Shown piece by piece: positions 8,394 through 51,080 of a DNA stretch of 64,000 nucleotides. Origin of the DNA: Aquificaceae bacterium (GTDB taxonomy: Bacteria; Aquificota; Aquificia; Aquificales; Aquificaceae); the NCBI GenBank assembly GCA_037925075.1, contig JAXSNR010000001.1, forward strand, positions 128,001 through 192,000. The letters run 5' to 3'. The notes beneath the pieces were generated by a model. That model saw only the letters and a program-made list of their open reading frames with translations. It was not told where the DNA came from and searched no databases. The translations under genes and the position numbers were made by a program. Each line of letters opens with the position of its first letter. Within the stretch, counting starts at the first letter, position 1.

Positions 8394-8427
8394 AGTTTAC
8401 AGGTCAATTGTTAAGATTTCGTTAAGA
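8394..8427 (-). promoter_or_regulatory. Putative Pho box plus -10 element of pstSCAB
   Basis: Minus strand TCTTAAC-GAAA-TCTTAAC (8427-8410), 10-nt spacer AATTGACCTG, then TAAACT; same geometry at four other promoters. Confidence 0.8.
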
Positions 8428-8706
8428 TACTCCGCGATAGGACTTTGCCCTTAGTGCAATTTCCTAACCGTTCAAGAGTTTTTGAATGATTGGCATAAAG
8501 GTTTATGGGAGTTATGACTACCAAATTTCTAAAGGCATACATGCTAAAGTCAATAATGCCACAGCCCCCATTATTATCGCTTCCGCCAAGGCATGTGGAA
8601 CAACATGCACCTTACCTATAATACTCTCTTTCACTAACGCCAAGCCTCTTGACCTTATAACTTTAAAATACTAAATTAATCCAATAAAGCACCGGGGGAG
8701 TTAAAA

Positions 8707-9648
8707 ATGAAGTTGAAAAACTTCTTTCTATTTCTAATTTTAGCCACCATGCTTTTGAATTTAGCACCCTCTTATGCACAGCAAGATGTACCTGGAAGCA
8801 AAGACCATCCAATCATTTCAAGATATCCTGGTTCTTATATATATCAATACGACCAGAAAGAGTTTGATGAATTTGAGATTCTTTTGAGTTCCACAAAAAT
8901 GTATCAAGGTGAGGATTATGTAAAGCGGGCAAAAAGAGAAAGGATTGAGGGAAAGGTCACAAGGATTGGATATCAAGCACCTAAAAATAGAAGTGTACTT
9001 GAGGTTTTTAAGAACTATGAAGAGGCAATCAAAAGGGCAAATTTTGATATACTTTATTCCGCAAGTGGAAAGGACCTCTCTATTAATGATTTTCTCAATC
9101 GTTATTTTACATTCCGTCCCGGCTGGAGTGAAGGTAAAAGTTTTTACTTATCTGCAAAAGATAGAACAGGAAATGTAATAATTTCAGTATGTGTGTTGCC
9201 CGGGTGGGATGGCCCAGTTGTACTTTTAGGAATTGTTGAAAAAAAGAGAATGGAAACGGGACTTATCACAGCTAAGGATATATACGAAAGAATAAAAAGT
9301 GAGGGGAAAGTGGCAATATATGGAATATACTTTGATTTTAACAAGGCGGATATAAAACCTGAATCAAAACCAACCATTGAGGAGATAGCAAAGTTTTTAA
9401 AAGAGCATCTTGAGATAAAGCTATACGTTGCAGGACATACGGATAATATAGGGAAGCTTGAATACAATATGGAACTTTCTAAGAGAAGGGCTGAGGCGGT
9501 GGTTAAGGAACTGACAGAAAAGTACGGTATAGCGAAGGATAGATTAAAACCCTTTGGGGTTGGACCTCTTGCACCAGTTTCAACAAACAAAACAGAGGAA
9601 GGAAGAGCAAAAAATAGAAGAGTTGAACTTGTGGAGGCAGGAGAATGA
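8707..9648 (+). CDS. OmpA-family protein with DUF4892-like N-terminal domain
   Basis: Signal peptide, DHPIISRYPGS; C-terminal IYFDFNKA, GHTDNIG..YNMELSKRRAEAV, NRRVELV peptidoglycan-binding domain. Confidence 0.88.
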   Translation: MKLKNFFLFLILATMLLNLAPSYAQQDVPGSKDHPIISRYPGSYIYQYDQKEFDEFEILLSSTKMYQGEDYVKRAKRERIEGKVTRIGYQAPKNRSVLEVFKNYEEAIKRANFDILYSASGKDLSINDFLNRYFTFRPGWSEGKSFYLSAKDRTGNVIISVCVLPGWDGPVVLLGIVEKKRMETGLITAKDIYERIKSEGKVAIYGIYFDFNKADIKPESKPTIEEIAKFLKEHLEIKLYVAGHTDNIGKLEYNMELSKRRAEAVVKELTEKYGIAKDRLKPFGVGPLAPVSTNKTEEGRAKNRRVELVEAGE

Positions 9649-11150
9649 AAAGGTGGATGTTGATTATCTTATTTATACTTTTAATTCCTCTTTCAACCTA
9701 TGCCTTTGAGCTTATTCCTATAGCCCAGTTTAGAGGGGTTAGAGCTATTATTTTGAAAGAGGGTGTTGGTTATTACTATGAAAAAACAAGACCACCTACA
9801 GAAGATGAAGTGAAGAAGAGGCTTGAATGGTTTGAGCAAGAATGGGAAAAATTGAAGGAAAAAGAGCCAGAGTTTGAAAAGGCACTTTCAGAAGGGGAAA
9901 AAAAGTTTAAAGAAGAGCTATCAAAGAGAAAACCACCTACATTTCTTAGGGACTTTTTCATGTCCGTTTTTCCACTGTTTAGACTTATAGCAAAAGAAGG
10001 TATGAAAATGGCAGAACCACTTGCCAAGAATTATTTTACAAAAGCACCAGTTGTGGTTGAGGCAGGGTTTGTGATTAAAAGGTTTGATGGCTCTTCTTAC
10101 AATTTAAAAATAGATTTTCATGAAGAGGAATGGAAGAGAATGCCCTCCGAAGGAATTTATCCTATTTCCTCCTCAGATGGAAGGTATTTGGCTTTAATGA
10201 CTGAGAGCGATTTTGGAAGGATAAGGGTTTTTAGAATAGAAAAAGAAAAGCTTGAACCCATTTTTGAGGTAGTTGGCTCAACACCCTTTGCCTTTTCTCC
10301 AAATGGAGAATACTTTTCCTATGCATCACCAAACAGATCACACATGCTTGTAGTAGACAAAGAAGGTAATCCTATAAGAAATATCCCTATAAGCTATAAA
10401 ATAGCAGGAAAAAAGGAAGATATAGGACCTATCAGAATAGCTCTTAGTGAAAGCTATCTTGGAATTGTGAGCTGGATTGGGATAAAACGTGTTGACCTAA
10501 AAAGTGGTGAAGAAAAAGAAGTTCGCCTTAGGGGTGGAAAATCCATTGTGTTTAATAGAACTGGAGACAGAATATATGCAAACAGTGTTGGCGGTGAAGT
10601 GTTTATCTATGACCTAAAAAGCTTAAACCTTATAAAAAAGTTGGACCCTTTCTATCTTAGAAAACGTGGGGTTTATATACAATACATAGCTTCCATTTCA
10701 CCTGAGGAGAGATTTATAGCGGTATTGTATGATCCCTCAAGCTATGATGATAAAGCGCCTCTTGAAACAAGCACCCTTTTAATTTATGACTTAGAAAGTG
10801 ATAGAGTGATAAAAAGGGTTGAGAATTTAGAAAGTATAACTGGTGGTTTTGGAGGTGTCTTTTTACCAGTTTCTTTTACAGAGGATTGGAGTTATGTATT
10901 GCTATCAAGAAAAGGAAACGTGGTTGAGCTTTATAAAATTAAAGGGGATTATGTAAAATCCGGAAAAAAGTTTTGTCAAAGTGATTCCGATTGTGTCTGT
11001 GGAATTGATAAAGAAACAGGAGAGTGTGCCTTTGGGAATAAGGAATTTATTGATACTTCTAAACAATGTCCAGATTTTTGCACTGGTATTCATGGAGGAT
11101 TCCGGATAAGATGTGTTTATAACCTTTGCAGACCAGTGCTTATTAAATAA
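9645..11150 (+). CDS. Secreted WD40/beta-propeller-like protein with C-terminal 8-cysteine domain
   Basis: Signal peptide; repeats such as SSDGRYLAL, FSPNGEYFSY, FNRTGDRIY, ISPEERFIA; C-terminus CQSDSDCVC...C...C...C...C...C. Confidence 0.65.
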   Translation: MKRWMLIILFILLIPLSTYAFELIPIAQFRGVRAIILKEGVGYYYEKTRPPTEDEVKKRLEWFEQEWEKLKEKEPEFEKALSEGEKKFKEELSKRKPPTFLRDFFMSVFPLFRLIAKEGMKMAEPLAKNYFTKAPVVVEAGFVIKRFDGSSYNLKIDFHEEEWKRMPSEGIYPISSSDGRYLALMTESDFGRIRVFRIEKEKLEPIFEVVGSTPFAFSPNGEYFSYASPNRSHMLVVDKEGNPIRNIPISYKIAGKKEDIGPIRIALSESYLGIVSWIGIKRVDLKSGEEKEVRLRGGKSIVFNRTGDRIYANSVGGEVFIYDLKSLNLIKKLDPFYLRKRGVYIQYIASISPEERFIAVLYDPSSYDDKAPLETSTLLIYDLESDRVIKRVENLESITGGFGGVFLPVSFTEDWSYVLLSRKGNVVELYKIKGDYVKSGKKFCQSDSDCVCGIDKETGECAFGNKEFIDTSKQCPDFCTGIHGGFRIRCVYNLCRPVLIK

Positions 11151-11161
11151 ATAAAGGGGAG

Positions 11162-11473
11162 TTGAAGATGGAAGAGAAGAAGGTAAATCCTATAGCGGTT
11201 CTGTGTTATGTGGGGATCCTTGTTTTGATCCCTCTTTTAGTGGAAAAGGAAGACGAATTTGTAAGGTTTCATGTAAGACAGGGATTAGTCCTGTTCATTT
11301 GTGAGGTGGCTACCATGCTAATTGGTTGGTTTCCTATAATCGGTTGGTTAATAAGCTTTATAGGTTTCTTCATTTGGATAATCCTTAGCCTTATTGGGAT
11401 TATAAATGTACTAACTGGCAAGACCAAACCATTGCCTTTAATTGGAGGGTACGCCCAAAAGTTTAAAATTTAA
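11162..11473 (+). CDS. DUF4870-like membrane protein
   Basis: [26 protein letters not shown] pattern; 3 TM segments. Confidence 0.75.
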
Positions 11474-11477
11474 ATTC

Positions 11478-13010
11478 ATGCGTGAGGTAATCTTTGAAAA
11501 GGGCATAAGGCACACCGCCCACGGGCTAAACTTCTATATGACCTACTTTGACGATGTGGCAAAGGTTCTACCAAGAGAAGCCTACTGCTTTATTGTGGGT
11601 GGGTGGGTAAGGGATAGGATTTTGGGTGAGCCTGTGGGCTATCACATAGATGTGGACCTTTTGGTGACCTGCGACCCAAGAGAGGTGGCAAAAAGGCTTG
11701 CGGAAAGGATAGGGGGCTCTTACTTTGAGTTTGAAAAGAAGGGGCTTTTTATAAAAAGACCCACAATAGCAACAGTGGTCCTAAGGCTTGGTCCTTACAA
11801 ATACCGCTTTGACTTTGCCCAGATAAAGGGAAGAGACTTAGAAAAGGCTTTGGTGGAAGACCTACTTTCAAGGGATTTTACCGCCAACGCCATGGCGGTA
11901 AGCATAGATGACGTGCTTAGCATAGGTGCAAAGCAAACCTTGATATACGACCCAGCACACGGAGTGGAGGACTTGGAGCAGGGGCTTTTGAGACCCGTAT
12001 CTTTGAAAAACCTTGAGGAAGACCCTGTGAGAATACTCAGGGGCTTTCGCCTTGCGGTGGAAAAAAGGCTTGAGCTTACAGAAGACTTTTATGAGTTTGT
12101 AAGGGAAAAGGGGAGCCTTATAAGGAAGGCTCCACCTGAAAGGATTACCCTTGAGCTTTTTAAGGTCTTGAGACAGCCAGAAGGCTATAAGGTTCTAAAA
12201 AAGTTATACCAGTATGGGCTTTTACAGGTGCTTTTCCCAGACACCGCCCGATGGAAGGAGATAAAAGACCAGGGAGAGCATCACATCTACCCTTTAGAGG
12301 AGCATGTTTTTAAGGTCTTGGAAGCTCTTGAGAAGGTAATCCAAGAAAGGGACAGATACCTACCTGCGGAACTTCTGGAAAACTTTGGTAAGACGGAAGT
12401 GCACGGTGAATTCTCCGATGTGGAGCTTTTGAAACTTTCCGCACTCTTTCACGATATAGCCAAACCTCACACCTTTGAGATAAGGGAAAACAAGATAACC
12501 TTTTACAACCACGATAAGCTCGGTGCTGAACTGGTAAGAGGTTATGGGAAGGCTTACAAGTGGGGTGAGACCGCCACGGAGTTTATAGCAAAGCTTGTAA
12601 GGGAACACCTAAGACCCTTTTATCTTAGAGAGTCCCTCTTCAAAGGACAGCTTACAGACAGGGGTAGGGCAAACTTTTGGAGGGAATGCGGAGATATAGC
12701 ACCTTATCTTTTCTTGCATGCCATGGCGGATGCCATAGGTAGCGGTGATGAGGAGGTGGAGATAAAAAGACTTCTTGAGACCATCCATGATCTGATAAGC
12801 TTCAAAAGGGAAAAACTTTCAAAGGTGCCTATGAAGGCTTTACTTGATGGGAAGGAGATAATGCAAGCTCTTGGCTTAAATCAGGGTCCTATTGTGGGAA
12901 GGATAAAAAAAGCATTAGAAGAAGCCCAGCTTGAAGGCAAGGTAAAAACCAAGGAAGAAGCCCTTGAGTTTATCAAATCTTACTACGAAAGCCTGAAAGA
13001 ACAAGCATAG
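11478..13010 (+). CDS. CC-adding tRNA nucleotidyltransferase (class II, HD domain)
   Basis: [40 protein letters not shown]; resembles the approx. 510-aa Aquifex CC-adding enzyme as I recall it; ATG at 11478 preferred. Confidence 0.85.
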
Positions 13011-13653
13011 CCCTGTGTATAAGAAGGGGATCATATAGACCTAACTCTTCAAAAAGCCACCCGTCGCCACCTGTGATAAGGAGCTTTAGGTCTTTTTTGT
13101 ATATATCACTCCAAGTTTTTAAACAGCCCATCAAAAAGTGTAAAGCTTGATTTATAAAGCCACCAAGGATGGCACCTTTTGTATCTTTACCTATCTGTAC
13201 AGAAAGCTTTTGAAGTTTGAGCTTTGGTATAAGTTCAGCTTTTTGCGACAGGCATTCAAGCCCAGCACCCACACCAAGGGTTATAAAACCACCTTGAAAC
13301 ACACCATTCACCACAAGGTCTATAACCGTCGCTGTGCCAAAGCTTGCCACCACCACATCCTTGTAGTAGAGCTTAACCGCACCGTAAAGGTTCAAAAGCC
13401 TGTCTATGCCCACTTTTTCCTTTCCTTCAAAGGCGGTCTCAATAGGCACATCTTCAGCCCTTATAAACCTTGCATGGGGGTATTTTTCTTTTATAAGGTG
13501 GTTGGCGGAAGGTTTAACAGAGGACACAAGCACAAGGTCTGCCTTCAAAAGGGGGATCTCATAGTGTTTGAACTTGCCAATGTACTCCAAAGAGCCATCA
13601 AAAAGGCATACATCTACCGATGTGTTGCCCACATCAAGGGTGATAACTTTCAC
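12973..13653 (-). CDS. coaX: Type III pantothenate kinase
   Basis: [31 protein letters not shown] start at 13653 inferred. Confidence 0.9.
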
Positions 13654-14533: not shown

Positions 14534-14547
14534 GGGAAAAAATTATA

Positions 14548-14581
14548 GCTTAATCAAATCTTAACAATTCACCTATACAAT
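14548..14581 (+). promoter_or_regulatory. Putative Pho box plus -10 element of the P1B-ATPase operon
   Basis: GCTTAAT-CAAA-TCTTAAC (14548-14565), 10-nt spacer AATTCACCTA, TACAAT (14576-14581); spacer matches the pstS spacer at 8 of 10 positions. Confidence 0.7.
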
Positions 14582-14590
14582 TCATAAGGG

Positions 14591-14965
14591 ATGATAGAGC
14601 ATGTGTCCTTAAGAAAAGGTGAGGCAAGGCTCTACTTTTCAAGCATTGCGGAAAAGGAGTTTTTTCTTCATGGTATGAAAGGGATGGAGGGGGTTGTGGG
14701 GGTGGAACACAAGGAGAACATAAGAACAGTCCTTGTAAGGTTTAGGGAGGGAAGCTTTGCTCACTACCTTATTGAAAACTTAAAGGCTAAGAGGGAAAGT
14801 CAGAAGCTGGAGAAGGAGGACTTACACTTCTACCTTCAGCCTTTTCTCAAACATCCGGCGGTTAAGTTGGGCTTTAGTATGGCTCTCCTTGGGTGGAATG
14901 TGGGGCTTATATCCTTTGCAATTTGCAGTATGTTTCTTATGCCATATTTAAAGAACAAACTTTAG
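14591..14965 (+). CDS. HMA-like domain plus C-terminal membrane segment protein (FezC-like)
   Basis: N-terminal ferredoxin-like pattern (GEARLYF..EGVVGVEH..RTVLVRF) and C-terminal TM with GWNVG (GxxxG). Confidence 0.5.
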   Translation: MIEHVSLRKGEARLYFSSIAEKEFFLHGMKGMEGVVGVEHKENIRTVLVRFREGSFAHYLIENLKAKRESQKLEKEDLHFYLQPFLKHPAVKLGFSMALLGWNVGLISFAICSMFLMPYLKNKL

Positions 14966-14975
14966 GAGGTAAGGT

Positions 14976-15290
14976 ATGCTTAACATCAGCGTTCCCAGTA
15001 CAATAGGTGGATGTTTGTCCACCAATATGCTTTTGTATGGCTTTGGTGCCTTTGCAGGGTTTGTGGTGCTTAGCAGGCTTATGAGGGATGCAAGGCCCCT
15101 TCTTGTTTCTGCTACAAAGGAGGTAATTGCCTTTCAGCAGTGGCTTGCGGGAAACCTTGAAGAAGGTAAGGAGTTCTGGGAGGATGTGGTCTCTGAAGCC
15201 AAGCACCAATACAGGCTTGAGGTGGAAAAGAAGTTGGATATCCTACAAAAACAGCAAGAAATCCTACAGAAAATAAAAGAAAGACTTTGA
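14976..15290 (+). CDS. DUF5132/DUF1490-like small membrane protein (FezA-like)
   Basis: Gly-rich TM (YGFGAFAG), then RPLLVSATKE...EFWEDVVSEAK amphipathic helix typical of P1B-ATPase-associated proteins. Confidence 0.6.
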   Translation: MLNISVPSTIGGCLSTNMLLYGFGAFAGFVVLSRLMRDARPLLVSATKEVIAFQQWLAGNLEEGKEFWEDVVSEAKHQYRLEVEKKLDILQKQQEILQKIKERL

Positions 15291-15301: not shown

Positions 15302-15505
15302 ATGAGCAACATAACTTCTTTTTTAGGAAAGGCTCTTTGCTCTGGACCCTTTAGCTTTGCCCTTGGCTTTGGCCTTGGAATGGTTGCCTTTTACATGCTC
15401 GACAGAGTCAAAGAAAAAAGAAGGCTCGAAGAAACCCAGAAGGAAATAGAAGCCCTGGTCAAAGCCCTTGAGCTAAAGCTCCAGCAGGAGAGCAAGACAG
15501 AATGA
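15302..15505 (+). CDS. Small GxxxG membrane protein with coiled-coil tail
   Basis: FALGFGLGMVAF TM, charged C-terminal helix; GAGGAGG SD. Confidence 0.6.
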   Translation: MSNITSFLGKALCSGPFSFALGFGLGMVAFYMLDRVKEKRRLEETQKEIEALVKALELKLQQESKTE

Positions 15506-17586
15506 CCTACAAGGTGGAAAAACTCTTCCCCGGAAGGCTAAGGCTTGTCTCTTACCTTTTCCAGCATCTACACCATCCCGATGAAACCTTAAAGTCCTAC
15601 TTTTCAAGGTTTGGAGGTGTAAGAAGAATAAGCTACTCAAAGGCTTCCGGAAGGCTCACCCTTGAATACGACCCAAAGAGCTTTGACCTTATAGAATTTC
15701 TCAACCACCTTGAAAGCATACCAAGGGATGTTTTCCTTGAAGACCTATCAAGGGAAAAACCAGCCACAAAAAGGGAAGAAGGTAAGGCCTCTCGTTGGCT
15801 TATGCTTAGCACCCTTGGCTTCCTGCCATACATAATGAGAAGCACCCTATCCACGCCTTTCCTTGCGGGGATAACATTGCTTCTTGCCAAGCCCATATTT
15901 GACAAGGCTCTCAGTTCTATTGGAAGGAAAAAACTTGACGTTCATTTTCTTGACTCATCAGCCATAGTTCTGGCAAGCCTTACGGGAAACCCACTATCCG
16001 CACACACTATGGTCTTCCTGCTTGCCCTTGGTGATTATCTTTCAGAGAGGGTTGAAAGGAAAGCCTACGAGAAGATAGAAAAGCTTTTCTCTTACAAAGA
16101 GGACACCGCATGGCTACTTGTTGGCAACGGTCAGGCGGTAAAGGTAAAAGCCATAGACCTAAAAAGGGGTGACCTGATAGCGGTCTATGCGGGAGAGAAG
16201 ATACCGGCGGACGGCTTGGTAGAAGAGGGAGACGCCCTTGTAAATCAAGCATCTTTGACTGGAGAGTCAAACCCTGTTCACAAAAAGGTGGGTGATAAGG
16301 TCTTTGCGGGTACCTTTGTGGAGGATGGAAAGCTTTATGTGAAGGTGGAAGAAGTGGGCGAAGAAACGGTGGTTGCAAAGATAGCAAAAATTGTGGAAGA
16401 GAGTATAAAGGAGCCCATAAGCGTGCAGAAGATGGCAGAAGAAAACGCCAACAGGCTTGTAATGCCCACCATCAACCTTGGCTTGATATCTTATCTACTT
16501 AGCAATCAGGTAAGCAGGCTCACCTCCACCCTTATCATAGACTACCATACGGGAATTCACCTTACAACGCCTCTGACGGTGCTCTCCAGTGTGGCACAGG
16601 CTTCTACCTACGGCATACTCATAAAAAGCGGTGGAAAGCTGGAGGCTCTTTCAAGAGTTGATACCTTTGTAATGGACAAGACGGGCACTTTGACTTTGGG
16701 GTATCCTGCGGTTGAAGATGTAGTAGGTCTGGAAGTGCCAGACGAAGAAGCCCTTTTATACGCCGCTTCCCTTGAGCAAAGAATAACCCATCCCGTAGCA
16801 AGGGCAATAGTAAAGATGGCAGAGGATAAAGATATAGAGCTTTTGCCAAGAGAGAACTCCCAGTATCATATAGGGCTTGGTATAGAAGGGGAGTTAAGCG
16901 GTACAAAATTCATGCTTGGAAGCACTCGCTTTATGCAAAAAAAGAGGATAAGGATAAGTCAAGAGGTAAGAGACCTTGTGGAGAAGTTCCATTCGGAAGC
17001 AAAATCTGTCCTTTACCTTGTTAGAGAAAAGAGAATAGTGGGGCTTCTTACCTTTAGAGACCCACTGAGGCAAGAGGCAAAGGATGTGGTAGCAGAGCTA
17101 AAAAGGAGAGGAAAAAAGGTAGTGCTTTGCACAGGCGACAACGAAGGCGTAGCCAAGTACATGGCAAAGGAGTTGGGCATAGAAGAGTTTTACGCAAGGG
17201 TTTTCCCTGAGGAAAAGGCAAAGGTGATAGAAAATCTTAAAAGGCAGGGTAGGGTGGTTGCCTTTGTGGGGGATGGTGTAAACGATTCACCAGCTCTCTC
17301 TCGTGCGGATGTGGGCATATCTCTAAGAAGTGGAACAGACATAGCCATAGAGGTGGCGGATGTGGTCATAGGAGATAGCCTTTGGCATCTTATCGATGTG
17401 GTAGATATAGCAGAGCATACTATAAAAAGGCTAAGAAGCATATACAGGCTTAATGCTTTAGCCAACACGGTGGGGCTTGTGGGCTCCGCATTGGGTCTTT
17501 TTGGACCCTCTGTATCAACCTTGATAAACAACGGCACCACAGTGCTTTTGGGTTTATATTCAATAAAAAAAACAAAAAGGAGGTGA
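15502..17586 (+). CDS. Heavy-metal-translocating P1B-type ATPase, P1B-6/FezB-like
   Basis: TGES, DKTGT, HP, GDGVND core motifs; N-terminal PGRLRL; DYHTG replaces CPC in TM4; NNGTT in the last TM. Confidence 0.85.
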   Translation: MTYKVEKLFPGRLRLVSYLFQHLHHPDETLKSYFSRFGGVRRISYSKASGRLTLEYDPKSFDLIEFLNHLESIPRDVFLEDLSREKPATKREEGKASRWLMLSTLGFLPYIMRSTLSTPFLAGITLLLAKPIFDKALSSIGRKKLDVHFLDSSAIVLASLTGNPLSAHTMVFLLALGDYLSERVERKAYEKIEKLFSYKEDTAWLLVGNGQAVKVKAIDLKRGDLIAVYAGEKIPADGLVEEGDALVNQASLTGESNPVHKKVGDKVFAGTFVEDGKLYVKVEEVGEETVVAKIAKIVEESIKEPISVQKMAEENANRLVMPTINLGLISYLLSNQVSRLTSTLIIDYHTGIHLTTPLTVLSSVAQASTYGILIKSGGKLEALSRVDTFVMDKTGTLTLGYPAVEDVVGLEVPDEEALLYAASLEQRITHPVARAIVKMAEDKDIELLPRENSQYHIGLGIEGELSGTKFMLGSTRFMQKKRIRISQEVRDLVEKFHSEAKSVLYLVREKRIVGLLTFRDPLRQEAKDVVAELKRRGKKVVLCTGDNEGVAKYMAKELGIEEFYARVFPEEKAKVIENLKRQGRVVAFVGDGVNDSPALSRADVGISLRSGTDIAIEVADVVIGDSLWHLIDVVDIAEHTIKRLRSIYRLNALANTVGLVGSALGLFGPSVSTLINNGTTVLLGLYSIKKTKRR

Positions 17587-17592
17587 AAAGCA

Positions 17593-17862
17593 ATGGAAGA
17601 AAAAAAGGACCTTGCTCAGGAGCTTGAAAAAATCAAGGCGGAGCTTGAGGAGCTTAAGAAAAAGATGGGAGTAGCGGAAGAGGAAAAGAGTCTAAAGGAC
17701 CTTCCTACGGAAGCCCTCTCAAAGGTTATGGAGCTCAGTAAAGAAATAGTAAAGACCACCGCGGAGATAGGCGAGAAGGCTCTAAGGGTTGTAAGGTATT
17801 CCGTTGAGGGTGCGGTAGAAGGCGCAAAGAAGGCACTAAAAGAAGAGGAGAAGAAAGAGTAA
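17593..17862 (+). CDS. Coiled-coil hypothetical protein
   Basis: Strong SD; highly charged helical 89-aa ORF in the same operon. Confidence 0.7.
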   Translation: MEEKKDLAQELEKIKAELEELKKKMGVAEEEKSLKDLPTEALSKVMELSKEIVKTTAEIGEKALRVVRYSVEGAVEGAKKALKEEEKKE

Positions 17863-17864: not shown

Positions 17865-18122
17865 ATGAACTTCATAAGGACAAGAAGCGGAAGGTATCTT
17901 AATACTCTCCATATTATATCCCTTTCGGTGGAGGAAGCTAAGATAGAGATAGAGGGGAAAAAGAGGCTGGTTTATAAGGTGGTCGCCTACATGAGCCAGC
18001 CTCTTCTTCCTGCGGTTTTGGGTATTTACTCCACAGAAGAAAGAGCCTTTGAAGTTTTGGAAGATATTATACAAAGGCTTTCAAGGGACGAAAGGGTCAT
18101 ACATGTTGAAAGCGAGTACTGA
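17865..18122 (+). CDS. Hypothetical protein
   Basis: 85-aa ORF tightly packed after the previous gene. Confidence 0.6.
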   Translation: MNFIRTRSGRYLNTLHIISLSVEEAKIEIEGKKRLVYKVVAYMSQPLLPAVLGIYSTEERAFEVLEDIIQRLSRDERVIHVESEY

Positions 18123-18441
18123 AGACTACGAAAGAGAACTAAAGCTACTTGCCCATCATATACAGGAAGCACATAAGGAGCTTTTTAAAAGCATACAAGA
18201 GAACATTCTTCTTGAGGTAGAGCTTCCCGAGGGAGGGGGAGTTAATTTCCTAATAAGCTCCAGTGGCATAAATCTCACCTCCGATGTATCACAAGCCAAA
18301 CACGTGGTAAATGTAAGCTACAGAGATTTAATGAGGCTTGTGGAAAATCCCTCAAAGATAGTTTCTTATGTATTAAAGGGTAGGGTCAGAATAAGGGGAG
18401 ATTACAAAACCATACTCTCCACGCTTCAGAAACTCCTCTAA
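18103..18441 (+). CDS. SCP2 sterol/lipid-binding domain protein
   Basis: VNVSYRDLMRLV..P....VLKGRVRIRGD pattern of the SCP2 fold; ATG at 18103 inferred. Confidence 0.7.
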   Translation: MLKASTEDYERELKLLAHHIQEAHKELFKSIQENILLEVELPEGGGVNFLISSSGINLTSDVSQAKHVVNVSYRDLMRLVENPSKIVSYVLKGRVRIRGDYKTILSTLQKLL

Positions 18442-18644
18442 AAGAGCCTGTTTAGAGCTTTTGTTATAAGGTTTTCCAACAAACCACCCACTACGAAGGA
18501 TTCTATAAGTATAGTCCTGTCCTTTTCGGTGAGAAAAGTGTCCCTTTCGCGTTTTCTGAACTTTTCACCCTTTTTAAGAAGTCTTCTATAACAGTCCTTC
18601 TCCCTCTCTATCTCCTGAATTAGAAGCTCTATCCTTTCCTTCAT
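18438..18644 (-). CDS. 68-aa hypothetical protein
   Basis: ORF directly downstream of its own Pho-box-like promoter. Confidence 0.6.
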   Translation of the reverse strand: MKERIELLIQEIEREKDCYRRLLKKGEKFRKRERDTFLTEKDRTILIESFVVGGLLENLITKALNRLF

Positions 18645-18652: not shown

Positions 18653-18686
18653 AGTTTAACTGAAAACTGTTAAGATTTCGTTAAGG
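18653..18686 (-). promoter_or_regulatory. Putative Pho box plus -10 element
   Basis: Minus strand CCTTAAC-GAAA-TCTTAAC (18686-18669), 10-nt spacer AGTTTTCAGT, TAAACT (18658-18653), 8 nt to ATG. Confidence 0.75.
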
Positions 18687-18723: not shown

Positions 18724-19833
18724 CTATACCTTAGCAAGGAAGCCACGATAGACCTCAAAGAGCCTGTCAAAGGTGGATTCCCAAGAAAACCTGTTGCGTA
18801 TAAAGGAGCTGACTGTTTCCCTGTATGATAAGCTTACCGCATTGCATGCATGGACTATGGCATCGTAGAAGACTTCCAGCGTGGGCTCTTTAACCAAAAA
18901 CTCCTTGAAGGGTTGTGTTTCAAGCTCCATATCAAAGGCAACCAGTAGACAACCGCACGCTTGAGCCTCAAGAAAGGCAAGTCCGTAGGTTTCGTAAAGG
19001 GAAGTGCTAACAAAGACATCACAACTCGCGTATATTTTTGCAAGGTCTTCTTTCTTAGCAATGTATCCAAGGTATGTAAGATTTGGAAGTTTTTGAGAGA
19101 GCCTTTCTACCTTTTTTCTGGCTGGACCATCGCCCACCACGACAAGATGAAATAATGTGGGGTCAAGATGTTGGAAAACTTCAAAGAGAAGGTCCACATT
19201 CTTATCGGGGGAAAGCCTACCCGCATAGAGGAGCTTAAATCTTCCCTCTTTTACTCCTATTATTTTATTGAAGTATGGGTCTCTCATAGAGGGGTTAAAA
19301 ACGTTTGTATCAACCCCTAAGTTTACAGTAAGCACATTTTCTATTCCAGACCTTTTTAGAAAGTCTTCCTGCGTCTTGGAGGGTGTTATTATGAGGTCCG
19401 CCTGGGATAGCTTTTTTCCTATGGTGTAGTCAATTAGAGCCTTCTTTAGTCTCTCTGGAGCAGGTATAAGTGAAAGGTCCGCCCTTATGTCGGAATGATA
19501 AAAAACGCTTAACATATACCTATCTGACTTGAGATGGTTTATGGGTTGGTATGTGCCACCTAGTTCTACCACATCTGGGTCTTCTACTTTCAGTATTTCC
19601 TTTATTTCCGAAAAGGAGGAAAAGAACCTGTAGCCACCGGTAAGGGGCAAGGGAAAAGAGGGAAGCTCATAAACCTTTGTGGAGTTTATGTAGTAGGTCC
19701 TCCTTTTTCTGCCCGGCACTATAAGAACATGCTCTATACCTCTCTGTTGCACATACTTGGTCTTTTCCAGTAAATACCTTCTTATGCCACCGCTTTTGCT
19801 ATGAAAGTAAGGGGTTATATCAGCTAACTTCAT
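18724..19833 (-). CDS. GT4-family glycosyltransferase
   Basis: MKLADITPYFHSKSGGIRRY, YAGRLSPDKN, GDGP, ETYGLAFLEAQACG; ATG at 19833 preferred. Confidence 0.9.
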   Translation of the reverse strand: MKLADITPYFHSKSGGIRRYLLEKTKYVQQRGIEHVLIVPGRKRRTYYINSTKVYELPSFPLPLTGGYRFFSSFSEIKEILKVEDPDVVELGGTYQPINHLKSDRYMLSVFYHSDIRADLSLIPAPERLKKALIDYTIGKKLSQADLIITPSKTQEDFLKRSGIENVLTVNLGVDTNVFNPSMRDPYFNKIIGVKEGRFKLLYAGRLSPDKNVDLLFEVFQHLDPTLFHLVVVGDGPARKKVERLSQKLPNLTYLGYIAKKEDLAKIYASCDVFVSTSLYETYGLAFLEAQACGCLLVAFDMELETQPFKEFLVKEPTLEVFYDAIVHACNAVSLSYRETVSSFIRNRFSWESTFDRLFEVYRGFLAKV

Positions 19834-22066
19834 GGACAAGCCTTCCAAGACCAGCTATGGCTAACATGTAGTCCATGTATGTTTTTCTCATATCAAGGCT
19901 TTTGGCGTAATACAGTGCTTCCTGAGACATGCTCCTTCTGAGGCTTTCATTGGAAAGAAGAAGGGACAACCTTTCTACAAAGTCTTCTTGTCTTGTGGCT
20001 ATAAAGCCATTAACACCCTCCTTTAAATGCTCATGGGAGGCACCCTTTGAACTTACCACCACAGGAAGACCGCATGCCATAGCCTCCAAAACCACCTGCC
20101 CATAGGTTTCAGTCTCTGAGGGGAAGAGAAACACATCTGAGCTTGCGTAGGCAGTAGCCAAATATTCTCCCACCATATATCCCACAAAATGCACATTTTT
20201 TGGTTTTTTAACTTCAAGCTCTCTTCTGTATGGTCCGTCTCCCACCACCACAAAAACATCCTCCGGAAAACACCTTGCGGTATAAAGGAAGGTATCCAAA
20301 CCCTTTTCCTTAGATACCCTGCCAACGTAGAGGATCACTCTTTGATGTCTTCTTATACCAAGCTTTTCAGTCCATAAATCTTCGCGTCTTTTTTGCGGTG
20401 AAAAGAGTTCCGTATCAACACCACGCTTGAAGGTGCTTACCTTGCCATACTCAAGCCCATTACTTATAAAAAGCTTTCTGTAATGTTCTGATGGGACAAA
20501 AAGCCTATCGGAGAGATTGCCCAGAAGGACAAAGGCTTTCCAAAGTAGTTCTTCCATCTGCGAGTCTCCCGTGTAGGTTCTTGCGTAGGCTGGTATGTCC
20601 GTATGAAAGGCAAAGGTGATCCTAAGATTTAGAACTTTGCCCGCTAAAAATCCCATAAGTCCAAGGGGTCCGGGTGTGGCTATATGAACTTGGGTAAAAC
20701 CCTCCTTTTCAATAAGGTCCAACAGCTCCAAAAAGTTAGGAACTCCCATCCTTAACTCTTCATAAAAGGGCGTGGCCAATTCAAAAAGAGGTTCTAAGTT
20801 TATAAGGTTTTCCTCTTCCTTTAACTGTGAGCTTGCAACAATCACTGTAAAGGGTAGGTCTTCCTCAAGGGCTATCTGTCTTATGAGCTTAGCACTTCTT
20901 GCAACTCCGTTTATGTGGTGGTAGGTATCCGTAAGGTAGGCAACCTTTGGAGGCTTTCCGTTGCTTATACCAAACTCCTTTCCAAGGACCCTTATCTTCT
21001 GCTCTTCTCTTTTCTGGGCGTACTTTAAAAAGGCGGGGAAGCCATGAGCCACGAGGGACAGGCACAGCTCCCCAATGGTCTGCGGTGAGGGGCTTTTCAA
21101 AAGCCTTCCTATGGCAAAGGAAGGCAGTTTTTTTGCTATTTCCCTCAAAAGGTCTGACCTTTCCGCTTTTATACCAAGAAGATTTCTCAAAAGCATACCC
21201 ACCAAAGGGTTGTCCGATTGCATGAAAATATAATCAGTTATCGGTCTTACCTCAGAAGGTATCAGGTTTTTGCTTTTTAGAAAGTCATAGCCCACTCTGC
21301 AAACCATATTGAGAAGCCTTTTATCTCCAAGGTCTTCTGTTCCCAAATGCGTTCTGCCTTCCCAAAGCCCTCGCAAAAACTCCTCTTTGCTAAGGGCCCC
21401 CTCAACTCCTGTCCAAGTCCTCCCCACATCCATGCCCCCGTGGTCATCAGAGCCTGCGGTAAAGGTGATCCTCTCCCTTATCCTCTGGGGTTCCATCTTG
21501 TGCCTTTCCGCAAGGGCGTTTATTCTGTCCCACCCATCGTAATGGCGGGCTATGGTCTCTTCTATGTATCTAACACCATCCCCCCTTGTGCCGTTTATCA
21601 CCTCCCAGTTGTCAAAGAGAAGCGCCAGTTTTTCCACGAGATTCCTGTCTATATTTGTCCCCTGCACCGAATAAAGAGGGTGTGCAAGGGAATGGGCTAT
21701 CCTGTGGGACTTTAGATATCTCACAAAATCGTATAAATTTTCCCTGAGCTTGAGAAGGTCCTGATGTTGGGCTTCTGTGATGCCATAGACCAACACATGC
21801 ACCTTAGCCTTTTCCTCTGGGAATTCCACCGTGTATTCACAGCTGATAAAGACCTCCGGCAGGTGTGCTATCTCAAGAACACCGCTTATAGTGTTGTGGT
21901 CTGTTATGGTAATATAGCTCATCCCTCTTTCTTTGAGCCTTATGTATATCTCCATGGGCTCTGTAAAGCTCTCTGGGCATCCTACTAACTTGCTAAACCA
22001 ACCCCCCGGCAGGTTGGAAGCCTTTGAATGAAGGTGTAGGTCCGCCTTTGCAAAAAAGTTCCCCAT
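19820..22066 (-). CDS. PHP phosphoesterase domain / GT4 glycosyltransferase fusion
   Basis: N-terminal DLHLHS, ITDHN, AHP, GSDDH (PHP); C-terminal TDTY..INGVA, HIATPGPLG, RGVD, YVGRVSKEK, ETYGQVVLEAMACG (GT4). Confidence 0.88.
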   Translation of the reverse strand: MGNFFAKADLHLHSKASNLPGGWFSKLVGCPESFTEPMEIYIRLKERGMSYITITDHNTISGVLEIAHLPEVFISCEYTVEFPEEKAKVHVLVYGITEAQHQDLLKLRENLYDFVRYLKSHRIAHSLAHPLYSVQGTNIDRNLVEKLALLFDNWEVINGTRGDGVRYIEETIARHYDGWDRINALAERHKMEPQRIRERITFTAGSDDHGGMDVGRTWTGVEGALSKEEFLRGLWEGRTHLGTEDLGDKRLLNMVCRVGYDFLKSKNLIPSEVRPITDYIFMQSDNPLVGMLLRNLLGIKAERSDLLREIAKKLPSFAIGRLLKSPSPQTIGELCLSLVAHGFPAFLKYAQKREEQKIRVLGKEFGISNGKPPKVAYLTDTYHHINGVARSAKLIRQIALEEDLPFTVIVASSQLKEEENLINLEPLFELATPFYEELRMGVPNFLELLDLIEKEGFTQVHIATPGPLGLMGFLAGKVLNLRITFAFHTDIPAYARTYTGDSQMEELLWKAFVLLGNLSDRLFVPSEHYRKLFISNGLEYGKVSTFKRGVDTELFSPQKRREDLWTEKLGIRRHQRVILYVGRVSKEKGLDTFLYTARCFPEDVFVVVGDGPYRRELEVKKPKNVHFVGYMVGEYLATAYASSDVFLFPSETETYGQVVLEAMACGLPVVVSSKGASHEHLKEGVNGFIATRQEDFVERLSLLLSNESLRRSMSQEALYYAKSLDMRKTYMDYMLAIAGLGRLVHEVS

Positions 22067-22739
22067 AGCTGGCTAACCTCCTTTCCTTTTTTATCTTGCC
22101 AAGTATTTCTTTCCAAAGCTCTATCTTTCTTTCGTCTCTAAAGTCCGCCATATGAAGGGCAAGTCTGAGGACCTGATGACCTTTGTAGAGTTTTTCCATG
22201 TTGGGAACCACCATAAGGCTTAGCCAAGATAGCAGATTCCTGTTGCTGAAGGTAAGCGTGGGAGAGTCTATGACCCTGTTGTGGTGTAGGTCCTTTATGT
22301 GCCACCTGTAAGCTACAGCCCTAAAACCAAAGGAGTAAAGCACATCCTCAAGGTAAGGATTCCCTATCCATGCGGGTGGCACAAAAAACTCTGTATTTAG
22401 ACCAAAATATTCCATAAGCTCCAAGCCAGATTGAACCCTTTTATAGGTCTCCGTAAGGTCAAGCCCCCCAAACTCACCCTCCCCATCTGTCCAAAGCAAG
22501 TCCTGAAGCCTCTTCTTACCCTTATGGGTGTACCCATGAAGCACCAGCTCCACCTTGAGGCTTTTTAGAAGGTTCAAAAAGCTCAGGTCCCCTCCAAGTG
22601 GTGCGTACTCCCAAAAGTAGGGCACTACAAGAAGGGAAAATCTATCCAATCCCACCTCCTCCAAGAGCTCAAGGGCTTTATAAAACTCAACCCTGTAATA
22701 AGGGCTCACATCGTGAAGTTCCACTATGGCAAGCTTCAT
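21993..22739 (-). CDS. DUF2334 / polysaccharide deacetylase-family protein
   Basis: ELHDVSP, LHGYTH, EGEF, FVPPAW, RLALH motifs. Confidence 0.85.
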   Translation of the reverse strand: MKLAIVELHDVSPYYRVEFYKALELLEEVGLDRFSLLVVPYFWEYAPLGGDLSFLNLLKSLKVELVLHGYTHKGKKRLQDLLWTDGEGEFGGLDLTETYKRVQSGLELMEYFGLNTEFFVPPAWIGNPYLEDVLYSFGFRAVAYRWHIKDLHHNRVIDSPTLTFSNRNLLSWLSLMVVPNMEKLYKGHQVLRLALHMADFRDERKIELWKEILGKIKKERRLASYGELFCKGGPTPSFKGFQPAGGLV

Positions 22740-22746: not shown

Positions 22747-22802
22747 AGAGTAGTATGGGAAAGTTAAGATTTCTTTAAGGTTTGGTTAAGATTTGGTTAA
22801 GA
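22747..22802 (-). promoter_or_regulatory. Four tandem Pho-box-like half-sites plus -10 element
   Basis: Minus strand TCTTAAC-CAAA-TCTTAAC-CAAA-CCTTAAA-GAAA-TCTTAAC (22802-22763), 10-nt spacer, TACTCT (22752-22747), 7 nt to ATG. Confidence 0.8.
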
Positions 22803-46770: not shown

Positions 46771-46783
46771 TATAATGTAGGGC

Positions 46784-47650: not shown

Positions 47651-48491
47651 TAAGGCAGGTGTTATATTCATAGGTATAACCATATTTCTGGGTGTGGCGG
47701 CTGTAAATACCGCCAACAATCTACTTTATCTTGTGGTTTCCTATATGCTTTCTTTTATGCTACTTTCTGGCGTCCTATCCCTTCACAATCTGAGGGGGCT
47801 TGAGGTGGTGGTCGTTCCACCAGATGAGGTTTATGCGGGCTCAAGGACAAACCTTAGGGTGGTGGTTAGAAACAGAAAAAGGCTTCCCTCCTTTCTTATA
47901 ACCATACGGATAGATGGAAATGACTTTGTATTCCCCCTTATACTTGGAAAAAAGGAAGCGGAAGGCACTCTATCCAAAACCTTTGAAAGAAGAGGGCATT
48001 ATTCAACGGTGAGCCTTGAGGTGAGCTCTTCTTTTCCCGTAGGCCTCTTTGAAAGGTTCTATATGGTGGATGTTCCCATAAACCTTGTTGTATTCCCCCA
48101 TCCTATGACAGACAAGGAGAGGTTTTTGGGCATTTTAACGAAGGAAAAAGAGCGGGCAAATTTTCAAAGCACAAGGCGAGGCTATGAAGAGCTGTACGGT
48201 GTAAGAGAGTATTCCAACGAACCTATTAAGTTGATTCATTGGAAGCTGTCCGCCAAAACGGGCAGTCTATATGTGAAGGAGATGGTGGAAGAGTCCACAC
48301 CACCAGTGGTATTGAGCTTAGATATGGTGGAAGGCACCACAGAAGAACGGATATCAAAGCTTGCATACTTGGTGATAAAGCTCGTCTCAGAGGGAAGGGC
48401 TGTAGGACTAAAACTGGCAGATAGAACCATAGAACCAGCAACAGGCAATTATCATAAAAGAAAGCTTCTTACCGAGTTAGCCCTCTTGTAG
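47622..48491 (+). CDS. DUF58 domain membrane protein
   Basis: [40 protein letters not shown]. Confidence 0.85.
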
Positions 48492-49568
48492 GAGTGCCTT
48501 TGGGTATGAACCAAGAACTTTGACCATCTGGGACCTTTCCTGCAAAAGCTCCAAAGCCCTTTTTACATTCTCTTCCTCCACGTGTCCCTCCAAGTCCACA
48601 AAGAACACATAATCCCAAAGCTTTTTCCTTGAGGGCCTTGAGACTATTTTTGTAAGATTAACACCGTACCTGTAAAAGCTTTCCAAGGCTCTGTATAGGG
48701 CTCCCGCTTCGTCCCTTATGGCGAATATGAGGCTTGTTTTGTCCTTGCCTGTGGGCTTCATTCCCCTTTTGCCTATAACAAGGAATCTCGTGTAGTTGTT
48801 GGGATTGTCCTGTATGTTCTCCGCAAGTATGTTAAGGTGGTAGGTATAGGCAGCTACCTCGCTTGCAATGGCTCCTGCGTCCTCCAACTCCATCACAAGG
48901 TCGCAGGCTTTGGCAGTGCTCTCCGTCTCTATAAGGCTTGCCTGTGGTAGATTTTTCCTCAGCCACTCTTTACACTGGGCGAGGGCGTGTTTGTGGGAAT
49001 AGATGGTCTTTATGTCTTCAAGACCACTGGCGGTAGAAAGCAGGTTGAGTTTAACGGGTATGACTATCTCCCCAACGATTTTGAGGTCAGAATCTAAAAA
49101 CATATCAAGGGTGTAATTGACCACTCCCTCTGTGGTGTTTTCCACAGGAACCACCCCATAATCAACCCTGCCCACATCCACTTCTTTAAAAACATCCCCT
49201 ATGGTGCCCACCGGCACATAATGAGCGGAAAAGCCAAAGTATTCCAAAGCAGCTTGATGTGTAAAGGTTGCCTTTGGGCCAAGGTAGGCAATCTTCAGCT
49301 CCTTTTCAAGGGAAAGGCATGCAGATATTATCTCCCTGTATATATGAAGTACCGCTTCGGTAGGAAACTCCTCTCCATAAACTTCCTTGTTAAGCCTTAT
49401 GATGCGGTTTATTATCTCCCTTTCCCTCTCTGGTGCATGGACTTCAAGCCCCATCTCCTTCTTTATCTCACCCGCCCTTTTGGCAAGCTTTGCCCTTTCA
49501 TTAAGTAGCCTTAAAATCTCCTCATCAATAATGTCTATTTTTCTTCTTAGATCCTTAAGGTCTTCCAT
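48477..49568 (-). CDS. pheA: Chorismate mutase / prephenate dehydratase
   Basis: LRRKIDIIDEEIL, AYLGPKATF, PVENTTEG, NYTRF, ACT domain. Confidence 0.96.
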   Translation of the reverse strand: MEDLKDLRRKIDIIDEEILRLLNERAKLAKRAGEIKKEMGLEVHAPEREREIINRIIRLNKEVYGEEFPTEAVLHIYREIISACLSLEKELKIAYLGPKATFTHQAALEYFGFSAHYVPVGTIGDVFKEVDVGRVDYGVVPVENTTEGVVNYTLDMFLDSDLKIVGEIVIPVKLNLLSTASGLEDIKTIYSHKHALAQCKEWLRKNLPQASLIETESTAKACDLVMELEDAGAIASEVAAYTYHLNILAENIQDNPNNYTRFLVIGKRGMKPTGKDKTSLIFAIRDEAGALYRALESFYRYGVNLTKIVSRPSRKKLWDYVFFVDLEGHVEEENVKRALELLQERSQMVKVLGSYPKALLQEG

Positions 49569-49571
49569 CCT

Positions 49572-49997
49572 TTACTTGTTAAGATACAACCCTTTGGCCC
49601 ACTCACTGGGCGGATGCCTTAGAGTATAAACACCCTTTTCCTTCCAGTATTTTCTTCTCTTCCTGTATATCTCCCTTAGGTAGTCCTTGAGCATAAGGCT
49701 TGGATATTTGCCCTTTGCCACCTTATGAAGATGCCACCACCACTTTTCTATAGGTTGGCTGTCATCATCTTGCATGGGTTCGTCAGAGCCCTCAAGAAGC
49801 TCAAGAAACCTATGCACATTCTGGAAGAGCCTTCTGTCCGCCTTTTTCACATAGACGCTTTCTTCAAGCCCCTCCTGATGGACCTTTTCTCTTAGCTTGA
49901 TTATTATGTCCGGGTATCCCACGCCGTAGTTAAAGAGCAGTTCAACCTCCGCAAAATAGATATAATCTGTGTCAAGTTTCCTTTTAAATTCACCCAT
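49572..49997 (-). CDS. Hypothetical protein
   Basis: ATG at 49997 (MGEFKRK...) avoids overlap with thiO; PIEKWWWHL motif. Confidence 0.65.
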   Translation of the reverse strand: MGEFKRKLDTDYIYFAEVELLFNYGVGYPDIIIKLREKVHQEGLEESVYVKKADRRLFQNVHRFLELLEGSDEPMQDDDSQPIEKWWWHLHKVAKGKYPSLMLKDYLREIYRKRRKYWKEKGVYTLRHPPSEWAKGLYLNK

Positions 49998-50016
49998 AAT
50001 AGGTAAATTATATACC

Positions 50017-51063
50017 ATGAGAAAAATCATTGTTGTGGGTAGTGGAGTTATAGGTTTGAGCTGTGCCCTTTTTCTTGCGTCCAATGGTTATAGGGTTCAG
50101 GTTATAACCAGAAACCCAGAAGAAGCCACCTCATGGACCGCTGGGGGAATGCTGGCACCCTTCTCCGAAGGCTTGGAAGGAGAGCTTTTTGACTTTTCTT
50201 ACCAAAGCCTCAAGGCTTATCCAGATTTTATAGAACACTTAAGGGATGTTTCTAAGCAAGAGATAGACTTTTGGCAGGAGGGCATCTACAGGGTGGTGCT
50301 AAAAGGTGAAGAGGAACTCTTAAATATAGCAAACAGATACAAAAGCAAAGGCTATGGCGTTGAGTTTGTTGAAAAACCAGATAAGGGGCTCTCATCGGAG
50401 GTTATATCTCTCATACATTACACAGAAGAGGCTTGGGTGGATGCGGAGATGCTCATGGATGCCCTGCTTTTTGCTATGAAAAGGCTCAGTGTGGATTTGG
50501 TGGTAGATGAGATTTGTAAAGTTATAAAGGATAATGAAGAAATAAGAGGGGTTAAGGGTCTTAAATCCGAATACAGGGGGGATTTTTACCTTTTTGCCAC
50601 TGGTGCATGGACAAGGGAGCTTTTTGACCTTCCTGTATATCCTATAAAGGGTCAGGGGCTTAAGCTCAAAGGTGAGAGCCTACCAAGGGTTCATTACTCT
50701 TCTGTTTCTTACCTTATACCGAGAAAAAGGTACATCTATGTGGGTGCCACTTCCGAAGAGGTGGGCTTTGTGAGTGGAAACACCCTTGAGGGCATAAAAA
50801 TGCTCTCCGAAGGTGCCTTGCGTGTGGCTCCCGTGCTTTCAGAAGCCCGCATTCTGAGCATGCTATACGGCTACAGACCAGCCACACCTGACGAAAACCC
50901 CATTTTTCAGGTGGGAGACAACTACATGGTGGCGACAGGACACTATAGAAACGGCATTCTACACGCTCCCATAACCGCAAAAATTCTATTGGATTATCTC
51001 AAAGGACAAAAGTCAGCCTATATTGACCTTTTTTCATCAAGCAGGTTCTTAACCAAATCTTAA
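50017..51063 (+). CDS. thiO: Glycine oxidase
   Basis: VVGSGVIGLS, AGGMLAP, PIKGQ, YLIPR, RPATPD, GHYRNGIL. Confidence 0.9.
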   Translation: MRKIIVVGSGVIGLSCALFLASNGYRVQVITRNPEEATSWTAGGMLAPFSEGLEGELFDFSYQSLKAYPDFIEHLRDVSKQEIDFWQEGIYRVVLKGEEELLNIANRYKSKGYGVEFVEKPDKGLSSEVISLIHYTEEAWVDAEMLMDALLFAMKRLSVDLVVDEICKVIKDNEEIRGVKGLKSEYRGDFYLFATGAWTRELFDLPVYPIKGQGLKLKGESLPRVHYSSVSYLIPRKRYIYVGATSEEVGFVSGNTLEGIKMLSEGALRVAPVLSEARILSMLYGYRPATPDENPIFQVGDNYMVATGHYRNGILHAPITAKILLDYLKGQKSAYIDLFSSSRFLTKS

Positions 51064-51080
51064 CAGACTCTCTCTAATCT
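51047..51080 (+). promoter_or_regulatory. Putative Pho box plus -10 element of phoX
   Basis: TCTTAAC-CAAA-TCTTAAC (51047-51064), 10-nt spacer AGACTCTCTC, TAATCT (51075-51080). Confidence 0.8.

Follow-up and report, generated by a model that had tools for sequence, protein, structure and literature searches.

Which regulator acts on the repeated promoter element that precedes both phosphate genes and a P1B-type ATPase module in an Aquificaceae genome, and what does it switch on? The element lies in a 64,000-nucleotide stretch of contig JAXSNR010000001.1 (assembly GCA_037925075.1, Aquificaceae bacterium; positions 128,001 to 192,000), which we call the window, and consists of a direct repeat with an 11-bp period followed by a TAnnnT hexamer. 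The source genome (G000) is 1.6 Mb and 99.95% complete, with the window at C1:128001-192000, and its closest named homologs belong to the Aquificaceae (Pampinifervens florentissimum, 86%; Hydrogenobacter sp. Uz 6-8, 84%). Judged from the sequence, the repeat is very probably the Pho box of this lineage, bound by a PhoB activator. The sites in the window and the phosphate genes among their targets are as follows.

8410..8427, minus strand: predicted Pho box (two units) of pstSCAB, read from the sequence; the best-scoring site lies 63-74 nt upstream in 23/23 pstS ortholog loci
8394..8399, minus strand: predicted -10 element TAAACT of pstSCAB, 10 nt past the box
4694..8364, minus strand: pstS-pstC-pstA-pstB phosphate ABC transporter operon, from Pfam; PstS scores 298 bits on TIGR02136 (cut-off 206.6)
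14548..14565, plus strand: predicted Pho box of the P1B module, read from the sequence; present in 17/17 genus regions
14576..14581, plus strand: predicted -10 element TACAAT of the P1B module; ATG 9 nt downstream, likely leaderless
18669..18686, minus strand: predicted Pho box of a 68-aa gene, present in 15/15 genus regions; -10 element TAAACT at 18658-18653
22763..22802, minus strand: predicted four-unit Pho box array of the DUF2334 operon, with four units in 22/22 genus regions; -10 element TACTCT at 22752-22747
51047..51064, plus strand: predicted Pho box of phoX, present in 20/20 genus regions; -10 element TAATCT at 51075-51080
51109..53061, plus strand: phoX alkaline phosphatase, PF05787 489 bits

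All five sites lie where the preliminary description had placed them, in the sense orientation of the downstream gene and with the proposed hexamer exactly 10 nt past the last repeat. The consensus reads YTTAAY-RAAA-TCTTAAC, 10 nt, TAnnnT, and the linker varies across the sites as (G/A/C)AAA, rather than the (C/G)AAA given before. The gene identities also hold: PstS scores above the TIGR02136 cut-off, PhoX belongs to PF05787 and the DUF2334 protein to PF10096. At phoX the box extends over the final codons of the preceding gene, including its stop codon.

A position weight matrix (PWM) was trained on the five sites (the 18-bp box plus the T, A and T of the hexamer) and run over the genome with a threshold of 20 bits. 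It gave 10 matches of at least 20 bits, compared to a mean of 0.13 and a maximum of 1 for 15 column-shuffled matrices, a frequency well clear of the background that would have spoken against the element. Five of the 10 matches are the training sites and one is a second register of the four-unit array; the remaining four are new.

C1:687380: phoU, TIGR02135 above cut-off
C1:582798: arsenate-reductase-like gene (arsC), 134 bits, below the cut-off of 174
C1:394352: DUF302 gene
C1:210936: glycine-zipper lipoprotein, 21.7 bits

The five sites first described are thus all real, and the regulon is larger than five. Recovery of phoU, on which the matrix had not been trained, supports the Pho-box assignment. 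When the matrix was retrained, using 70 sites drawn exclusively from relatives, the same eight units came out on top in G000: pstSCAB, phoX, phoU, arsC, DUF302, the DUF2334-glycosyltransferase operon and the two transcription units of the P1B module. Of the other genomes of the genus, 23/24 contain the exact pattern, as do 2/12 from other genera of the family, while the same pattern read backwards occurs in none of the 61 Aquificales genomes.

The box is conserved upstream of orthologs. With leave-one-out matrices, the 19 pstS loci of the genus score 28.7-29.6 bits and the four from other genera 14.7-22.6 bits. For the other units we counted footprints of at least 18 bits within 300 nt upstream, where the ortholog loci are the best hits of each search (30 at most), genus counts include G000, four partial phoX loci are excluded and two weak phoX loci are left unscored. 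Within the genus a footprint precedes phoU in 17/18, DUF2334 in 22/22, phoX in 19/20, arsC in 17/20 and DUF302 in 14/22 loci, and neither the in-gene nor the reverse-strand controls reached 18 bits. A matrix of the box alone (at least 11 bits) finds a site in 145/152 genus regions, and 135 of these 145 have TAnnnT at an offset of 10, whereas no other offset between 4 and 17 exceeds 23. Among orthologs the half-sites are 79-98% identical and the spacer 38-58%, so that the box is kept while the 10-nt spacer drifts, as expected for a Pho box. The first in-frame ATG lies 6-10 nt past the hexamer for DUF2334 (22/22), the 68-aa gene (15/15), the 124-aa gene that leads the P1B module (11/11 scorable) and arsC (19/19), and a Shine-Dalgarno word is almost always lacking there. 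This distance suggests that the four units make leaderless mRNAs and gives independent support to the -10 assignment.

Several candidates at the edge of the scan were set aside. The glycine-zipper lipoprotein site was rejected as a regulon member, since only 1/5 orthologs reaches 12 bits and the hexamer is off by one. A box at C1:625147, with neither a -10 element nor a downstream gene, was likewise rejected and is read as a relic of an arsC promoter, because G019 has the arsC box at the same position, beside a tetR-like gene. The glgA site (C1:442308) scores 16.9-18.6 bits for the box only, and its hexamer is not at 10 nt. Two identical copies 199 nt apart, C2:447649 and C2:447848, hold three TTAA/CTAA units with a weak box score and no hexamer at 10 nt.

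The preliminary description had stated that no cognate regulator is encoded in the window, and the four OmpR-family genes of G000 indeed all lie elsewhere. Three of them have an adjacent kinase; the fourth, C2:654700-655371, is unlinked and is likely the regulator, being PhoB-like in sequence. Its best model is TIGR02154 PhoB (234 bits), the three other regulators score lower on PhoB models, and among solved structures E. coli PhoB matches its DNA-binding domain best, with the helix RTVDVHIKKLR against RTVDVHIRRLR. A YaeI-like metallophosphoesterase gene (C2:655368-656510) overlaps its 3' end.

Gene context in relatives supports orthology of the regulator and of a kinase to PhoB and PhoR. Outside the genus, 7/20 examined neighbourhoods of regulator orthologs lie beside pst, phoU or phoR or behind a box. 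The genes phoB, phoR and pstSCAB stand together in G030; in G060 and G052, pst-phoU-phoR lies beside a boxed pair of genes that runs divergently and has phoB as its last member. The order box, small gene, phoB is found in G050, G053 and G056, where the small gene is assigned by position and a similar N-terminus and in G060 is PsiE itself. In G028 the box is followed by a gene homologous to the 58-aa one behind DUF302 in G000, then by phoB and a divergent phoR. In other Aquificales families the box stands before psiE-phoB, before pst and before phoU. The kinases beside the phoB genes of relatives find their best match in G000 at C2:116993-117979, a 328-aa PhoR-like kinase (275 bits) which lacks the N-terminal membrane region and whose gene sits behind a purK-like gene. 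When models are ranked by score, those of PhoB are the top matches of the regulator, and PhoR takes second place among those of the kinase.

Some observations weigh against this assignment. Both proteins score below their model cut-offs (296 for PhoB, 334 for PhoR), their genes in G000 are linked neither to each other nor to pst, neither carries a box, and 13/20 of the regulator neighbourhoods lack Pho context. The box is also not universal in the order, with the exact pattern in 0/8 genomes of family f2 and 2/16 of f3. Outside the genus the footprint precedes phoU in 1/12 loci (0/7 outside the family), DUF2334 in 4/8, phoX in 1/4, arsC in 0/10 and DUF302 in 0/8, and within the genus 8/22 DUF302 loci lack it. 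The related genomes behind the conservation counts are, moreover, not independent of each other. A different regulator, either another OmpR-family member or an unrelated factor, might then bind the repeat, with the phosphate genes only part of its regulon. The existence of four OmpR-family genes, the score of the best candidate below the PhoB cut-off and the presence of arsC, DUF302 and a pump, which have no textbook phosphate role, would fit this. However, each of the three other regulators has its own adjacent kinase and scores lower on PhoB models, and in relatives the box precedes pstS, phoX, phoU, psiE and the phoB ortholog itself; we consider a different regulator very improbable. That the repeats are chance AT-rich sequence, or TTAA stop-codon patterns near gene ends, is suggested by the overlap of the phoX box with a stop codon and by the unconserved lipoprotein match. 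Yet the null and reversed controls are near zero, the period and spacing are fixed, and the half-sites are conserved where the spacer is not, and the probability of this explanation is negligible.

With binding by PhoB as the preferred reading, the regulon would work as follows. Under phosphate shortage the PhoR-like kinase at C2:116993-117979, which has no membrane segment, would phosphorylate the regulator at C2:654700-655371, as in known PhoB systems. By the same precedent the regulator would occupy the repeats head-to-tail, standing in for a -35 element, and recruit the sigma-70 polymerase. The activator would turn on phosphate uptake, scavenging, lipid replacement and a ferrosome-like pump module, with four of the boxed units predicted to yield leaderless mRNAs and arsC presumably dealing with arsenate that enters alongside phosphate. 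The deep-branching Aquificae thereby gain a concrete candidate phosphate regulon, with a box, a likely regulator, a likely kinase and eight transcription units in G000, and the box predicts that phosphorus-free lipid synthesis and arsenate reduction are under phosphate control in these thermophiles. No description of a Pho box for Aquificae was found in the literature searched, which did not cover subscription journals, and the part of the Aquificales genomics paper PMC4227106 consulted mentions none. Within the same coverage we found no report of the regulon content or of the phosphate wiring, across phyla, of the pump module described below.

Several boxed loci outside the window deserve a brief description. 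The arsC gene (C1:582798-583279) combines a conserved box with a likely leaderless start, and its footprint counts within and outside the genus indicate a genus-specific recruit. The boxed DUF302 gene (C1:393743-394352) is followed by the 58-aa gene whose homolog in G028 stands between box and phoB. In the boxed phoU region (C1:684935-687327) phoU is followed, with overlapping stop and start, by a gene for a 574-aa HAMP histidine kinase which is not the PhoR ortholog; the pair also occurs in G035. An operon of an Arf/MglA-like small GTPase with a HEAT/zinc-ribbon protein is boxed in several relatives (L315:2693-4965, L314:8652-10989, L177:67-1552), and its homologs in G000 (C1:605237) have no PWM match.

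The DUF2334 operon behind the four-unit array holds three genes.

21993..22739, minus strand: DUF2334 deacetylase-like protein, PF10096; first gene, likely leaderless
19820..22066, minus strand: PHP-like metallohydrolase fused to a GT4 glycolipid-synthase-like domain, 748 aa, from profile models
18724..19848, minus strand: GT4 glycosyltransferase, 374 aa; best model GlcNAc-phosphatidylglycerol synthase

The best model of the DUF2334 protein is the GlcNAc-phosphatidylglycerol deacetylase NF053788 (GpgD-like; 100 bits, below the cut-off of 280), and the 374-aa glycosyltransferase scores 187 bits on NF053787 (GpgS-like; below the cut-off of 480). In the 748-aa protein the GT4 domain is best matched by glycolipid synthases; the PHP-like hydrolase domain is only weakly matched and has no meaningful match in the Protein Data Bank (PDB). 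The PHP-GT4 fusion is widespread, with 1321 matches. The operon probably serves to replace phospholipids with phosphorus-free (amino)glycolipids, by analogy with PlcP-Agt, a Pho-box-led phosphoesterase and glycosyltransferase pair for lipid remodelling described in the part of PMC8528852 consulted. The two systems share a predicted Pho box and a GT4 glycosyltransferase, and would also share a phosphoesterase and a glycolipid product; they differ in that the candidate phosphoesterase here is a PHP-like domain fused to GT4, not PlcP. With gpgSDF of P. aeruginosa (PMC12713373) the likeness is that GpgS- and GpgD-like models rank first for two of the genes, all lipid-model scores being below cut-off; PhoB does not appear in the main text of that paper as far as consulted. 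In relatives the box also precedes GNAT/acyltransferase genes, which are fused and upstream of DUF2334 in G052 and G060 and, in G052, in one operon with it. We take these genes to be of the ornithine-lipid OlsB/OlsA type, and no OlsB-type gene was found in G000.

The two remaining boxes of the window flank the P1B module, whose last gene is transcribed towards the others.

14591..14965, plus strand: 124-aa FezC-like protein with a small alpha/beta domain and C-terminal hydrophobic helices with GxxxG, from alignment and model
14976..15290, plus strand: 104-aa DUF5132/DUF6110-like membrane protein with GxxxG; ESM Atlas matches at 0.88-0.89, as a lead only
15302..15505, plus strand: 67-aa membrane protein with GxxxG, conserved in the module
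15502..17586, plus strand: P1B-type ATPase with DYHTG/NNGTT, from TIGR01525 above cut-off, motifs and tree
17593..17862, plus strand: 89-aa coiled-coil protein with GxxxG, conserved module gene
17865..18122, plus strand: 85-aa conserved module gene of no family
18049..18441, plus strand: SCP2-like (lipid-binding fold) gene, PF02036 21.8 bits (cut-off 21.3); translation probably begins at the ATG near 18103
18438..18644, minus strand: 68-aa conserved protein, eighth module gene by alignment and gene order

The 68-aa frame, first taken for an orphan, is therefore part of the module; it has no match in the ESM Atlas. The family of the 124-aa protein shows a weak HMA_2 match in 2/11 members, and a fold search with its model returned generic small alpha/beta folds (best Z 8.2 for the ArgR C-domain, CopA HMA at Z 4.8). 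The ATPase carries an N-terminal R-rich (RxR) motif, PGRLRL, and is flanked by the GxxxG motifs of the 124-, 104-, 67- and 89-aa proteins. FezB (P1B-6), the ferrosome pump, is defined by D[Y/F]SCA and HNxxT in the part of bioRxiv 10.1101/2020.01.10.902569 consulted. Here DYHTG replaces the former and NNGTT the latter, so the ATPase is not FezB, and it lies outside the FezB clade. A FastTree of representatives, in which FezB is defined by motif and no named FezB or FezH sequence is included, places it in a clade with the motif D[YF]xTG (support 1.0), whose sister group is the main DYSCA clade (0.997). A search for solved structures turned up no FezB-like pump. The module shares with ferrosome fez clusters a P1B ATPase with RxR, here of a clade sister to the DYSCA/HN pumps, and small GxxxG membrane neighbours, and its 124-aa protein may correspond to FezC; it differs in its predicted phosphate control, instead of linkage to iron genes, and in the additional SCP2-like and 68-aa genes.

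The module is found in 25/61 Aquificales genomes. Besides the genus regions listed above, boxes precede it in G031, G035, G055 and G056, and in G056 it directly follows porin-pstSCAB-phoU-phoR with a box of its own. In G050 a degenerate four-unit array before the module was seen by eye; G029, on the other side, has the module without a box. Among 61 genomes around G061, six carry the module. In four of the six, of Thermodesulfobacteria type, the ATPase is 48-50% identical and the 68-aa gene leads the operon; arrays of three to four TTTAA(C/A) units, with TAnnnT after 10 nt, are common to pstS and the module there. The 136,359 bases from the six genomes hold 17 such arrays, compared to a mean of 0.3 and a maximum of 3 in 100 local shuffles. 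Four precede pstS, nine module genes, one DUF2334 and one another gene, and two no open reading frame. The value of this count is reduced because the array rule was written after the promoters had been seen and because the loci had been selected for holding these genes. Box and module may also have been transferred together. A FezB-sister pump module appears tied to phosphate rather than iron in both phyla.

Some further observations concern individual modules. That of G061 (L184) is 73% identical to the Aquificaceae module, compared to 48-50% in its relatives, which indicates recent transfer or mis-binning. In family f3 the module begins with an extra 163-189-aa protein of no Pfam family (L309:6628-7119, L310:5796-6365, L311:6718-7251). 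A boxed cluster in G035 (L312, L313) brings together an MFS transporter, TonB-dependent receptors, a phosphoesterase, an acyltransferase, DUF2334-GT, the pump module and a cation-efflux (CDF) gene. In G060 (L159:1020-2153) a three-unit box behind phoR leads to an interrupted SCP2-like frame near a 68-aa homolog, likely a module remnant, and no pump was found in this genome. For the wider DxxTG clade, a metagenome scan, itself unspecific, returned the motif in 0/79 loci and 10 of DYSCA type, and a plasmid search for Pho links found nothing.

What the pump does is a more tentative matter. By analogy, the module may load a small membrane compartment with a divalent cation, which would precipitate phosphate there and buffer the influx that follows starvation. 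In the parts of the sources consulted, ferrosomes contain ferrous phosphate (10.64898/2026.06.16.732667), and Caulobacter depends on polyphosphate kinase for its survival when phosphate is supplied again, polyphosphate synthesis buffering phosphate (PMC13250506). The kinase gene ppk1 is found in 1/61 Aquificales genomes and 0/5 of the Thermodesulfobacteria-type group, and neither PPK2 nor VTC was found in G000. Taken together these points weakly favour a cation-phosphate compartment, and the pump module is a specific candidate for how bacteria without polyphosphate kinase buffer phosphate. However, genomes that lack the module lack ppk1 as well, so the missing kinase gene does not point to the module in particular; nor does the pump conserve the metal ligands of FezB. 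The wider proposal, that a PhoB-induced sister of the ferrosome machinery builds a metal-phosphate storage organelle in hot-spring Aquificae and Thermodesulfobacteria, is doubtful; if true, starving cells would make a phosphate organelle, ready to capture and detoxify the phosphate that arrives with the next pulse.

Within the same regulon the module could instead work together with the lipid operon, in membrane remodelling or as a metal platform comparable to mycobacterial PacL-CtpC, and be no mineral store. Among 50 genomes at least 90% complete it always occurs with DUF2334 (21/21, never alone) and together with phoX in 15/21, a difference which makes a membrane-platform role nearly as likely as storage, though still short of probable. 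The two are neighbours in G000, G029, G031 and G055, the SCP2-like gene is kept in both phyla, and DUF6110-type proteins are suggested to form membrane platforms together with P1B-6-like pumps (bioRxiv 10.1101/2021.10.01.462712, consulted in part). The DUF5132/DUF6110 families are also reported beside P1B-6 pumps and beside the calcium-carbonate marker ccyA. On the other hand, nine genomes carry DUF2334 but no module, the module is served by promoters of its own, and the CDF genes within it or immediately behind it in G055 and G035 point to metal handling. It is unlikely, finally, that the pump serves to export cations (Mg, Mn, Zn, Fe) released as phosphate ligands become scarce, or to provide PhoX with its metal. 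P1B ATPases normally act as exporters and PhoX requires Fe and Ca, which would agree with either role, as would the 15/21 co-occurrence for the latter. But seven accessory genes, several with GxxxG, exceed the usual needs of an exporter, and six high-quality genomes have the module without a full phoX and four phoX without the module, so that an obligatory link between pump and PhoX is not supported.

We compared the box itself to known Pho boxes. The half-site presumably also resembles the Bacillus PhoP motif TT(A/T)ACA; the closest box among those checked is the SphR repeat. The twelve units of the window match 5-7/8 bases of the SphR consensus CTTAACCT and 2-3/7 of E. coli CTGTCAT, from which the preliminary description had rightly set the half-site apart. 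SphR, the cyanobacterial PhoB ortholog, recognises in Synechocystis PCC 6803 and others an 8-bp unit with a 3-bp linker, according to the part of PMC1906773 consulted, and the two boxes share the 11-bp period and the position at pstS and phosphatase genes. The differences are that SphR is described there as needing at least three units, whereas two are usual here and four occur, and that our unit ends in RA instead of CT, with a linker fixed as AAT. The same part of that paper holds no mention that we found of ATPase, arsen-, glycosyl- or metal targets. With E. coli PhoB the box shares its layout of 7+4+7 ending 10 bp before the -10 element (PMC1906773, PMC4415409, both consulted in part), the targets pstSCAB, phoU, phosphatase and psiE, and a near-identical recognition helix, while in G000 phoB and phoR are unlinked and unboxed and the kinase lacks the N-terminal membrane region. 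The box type is thus already known, combining an SphR-like half-site with the geometry of E. coli, and by every testable feature the element is most likely a PhoB-type box of cyanobacterial flavour.

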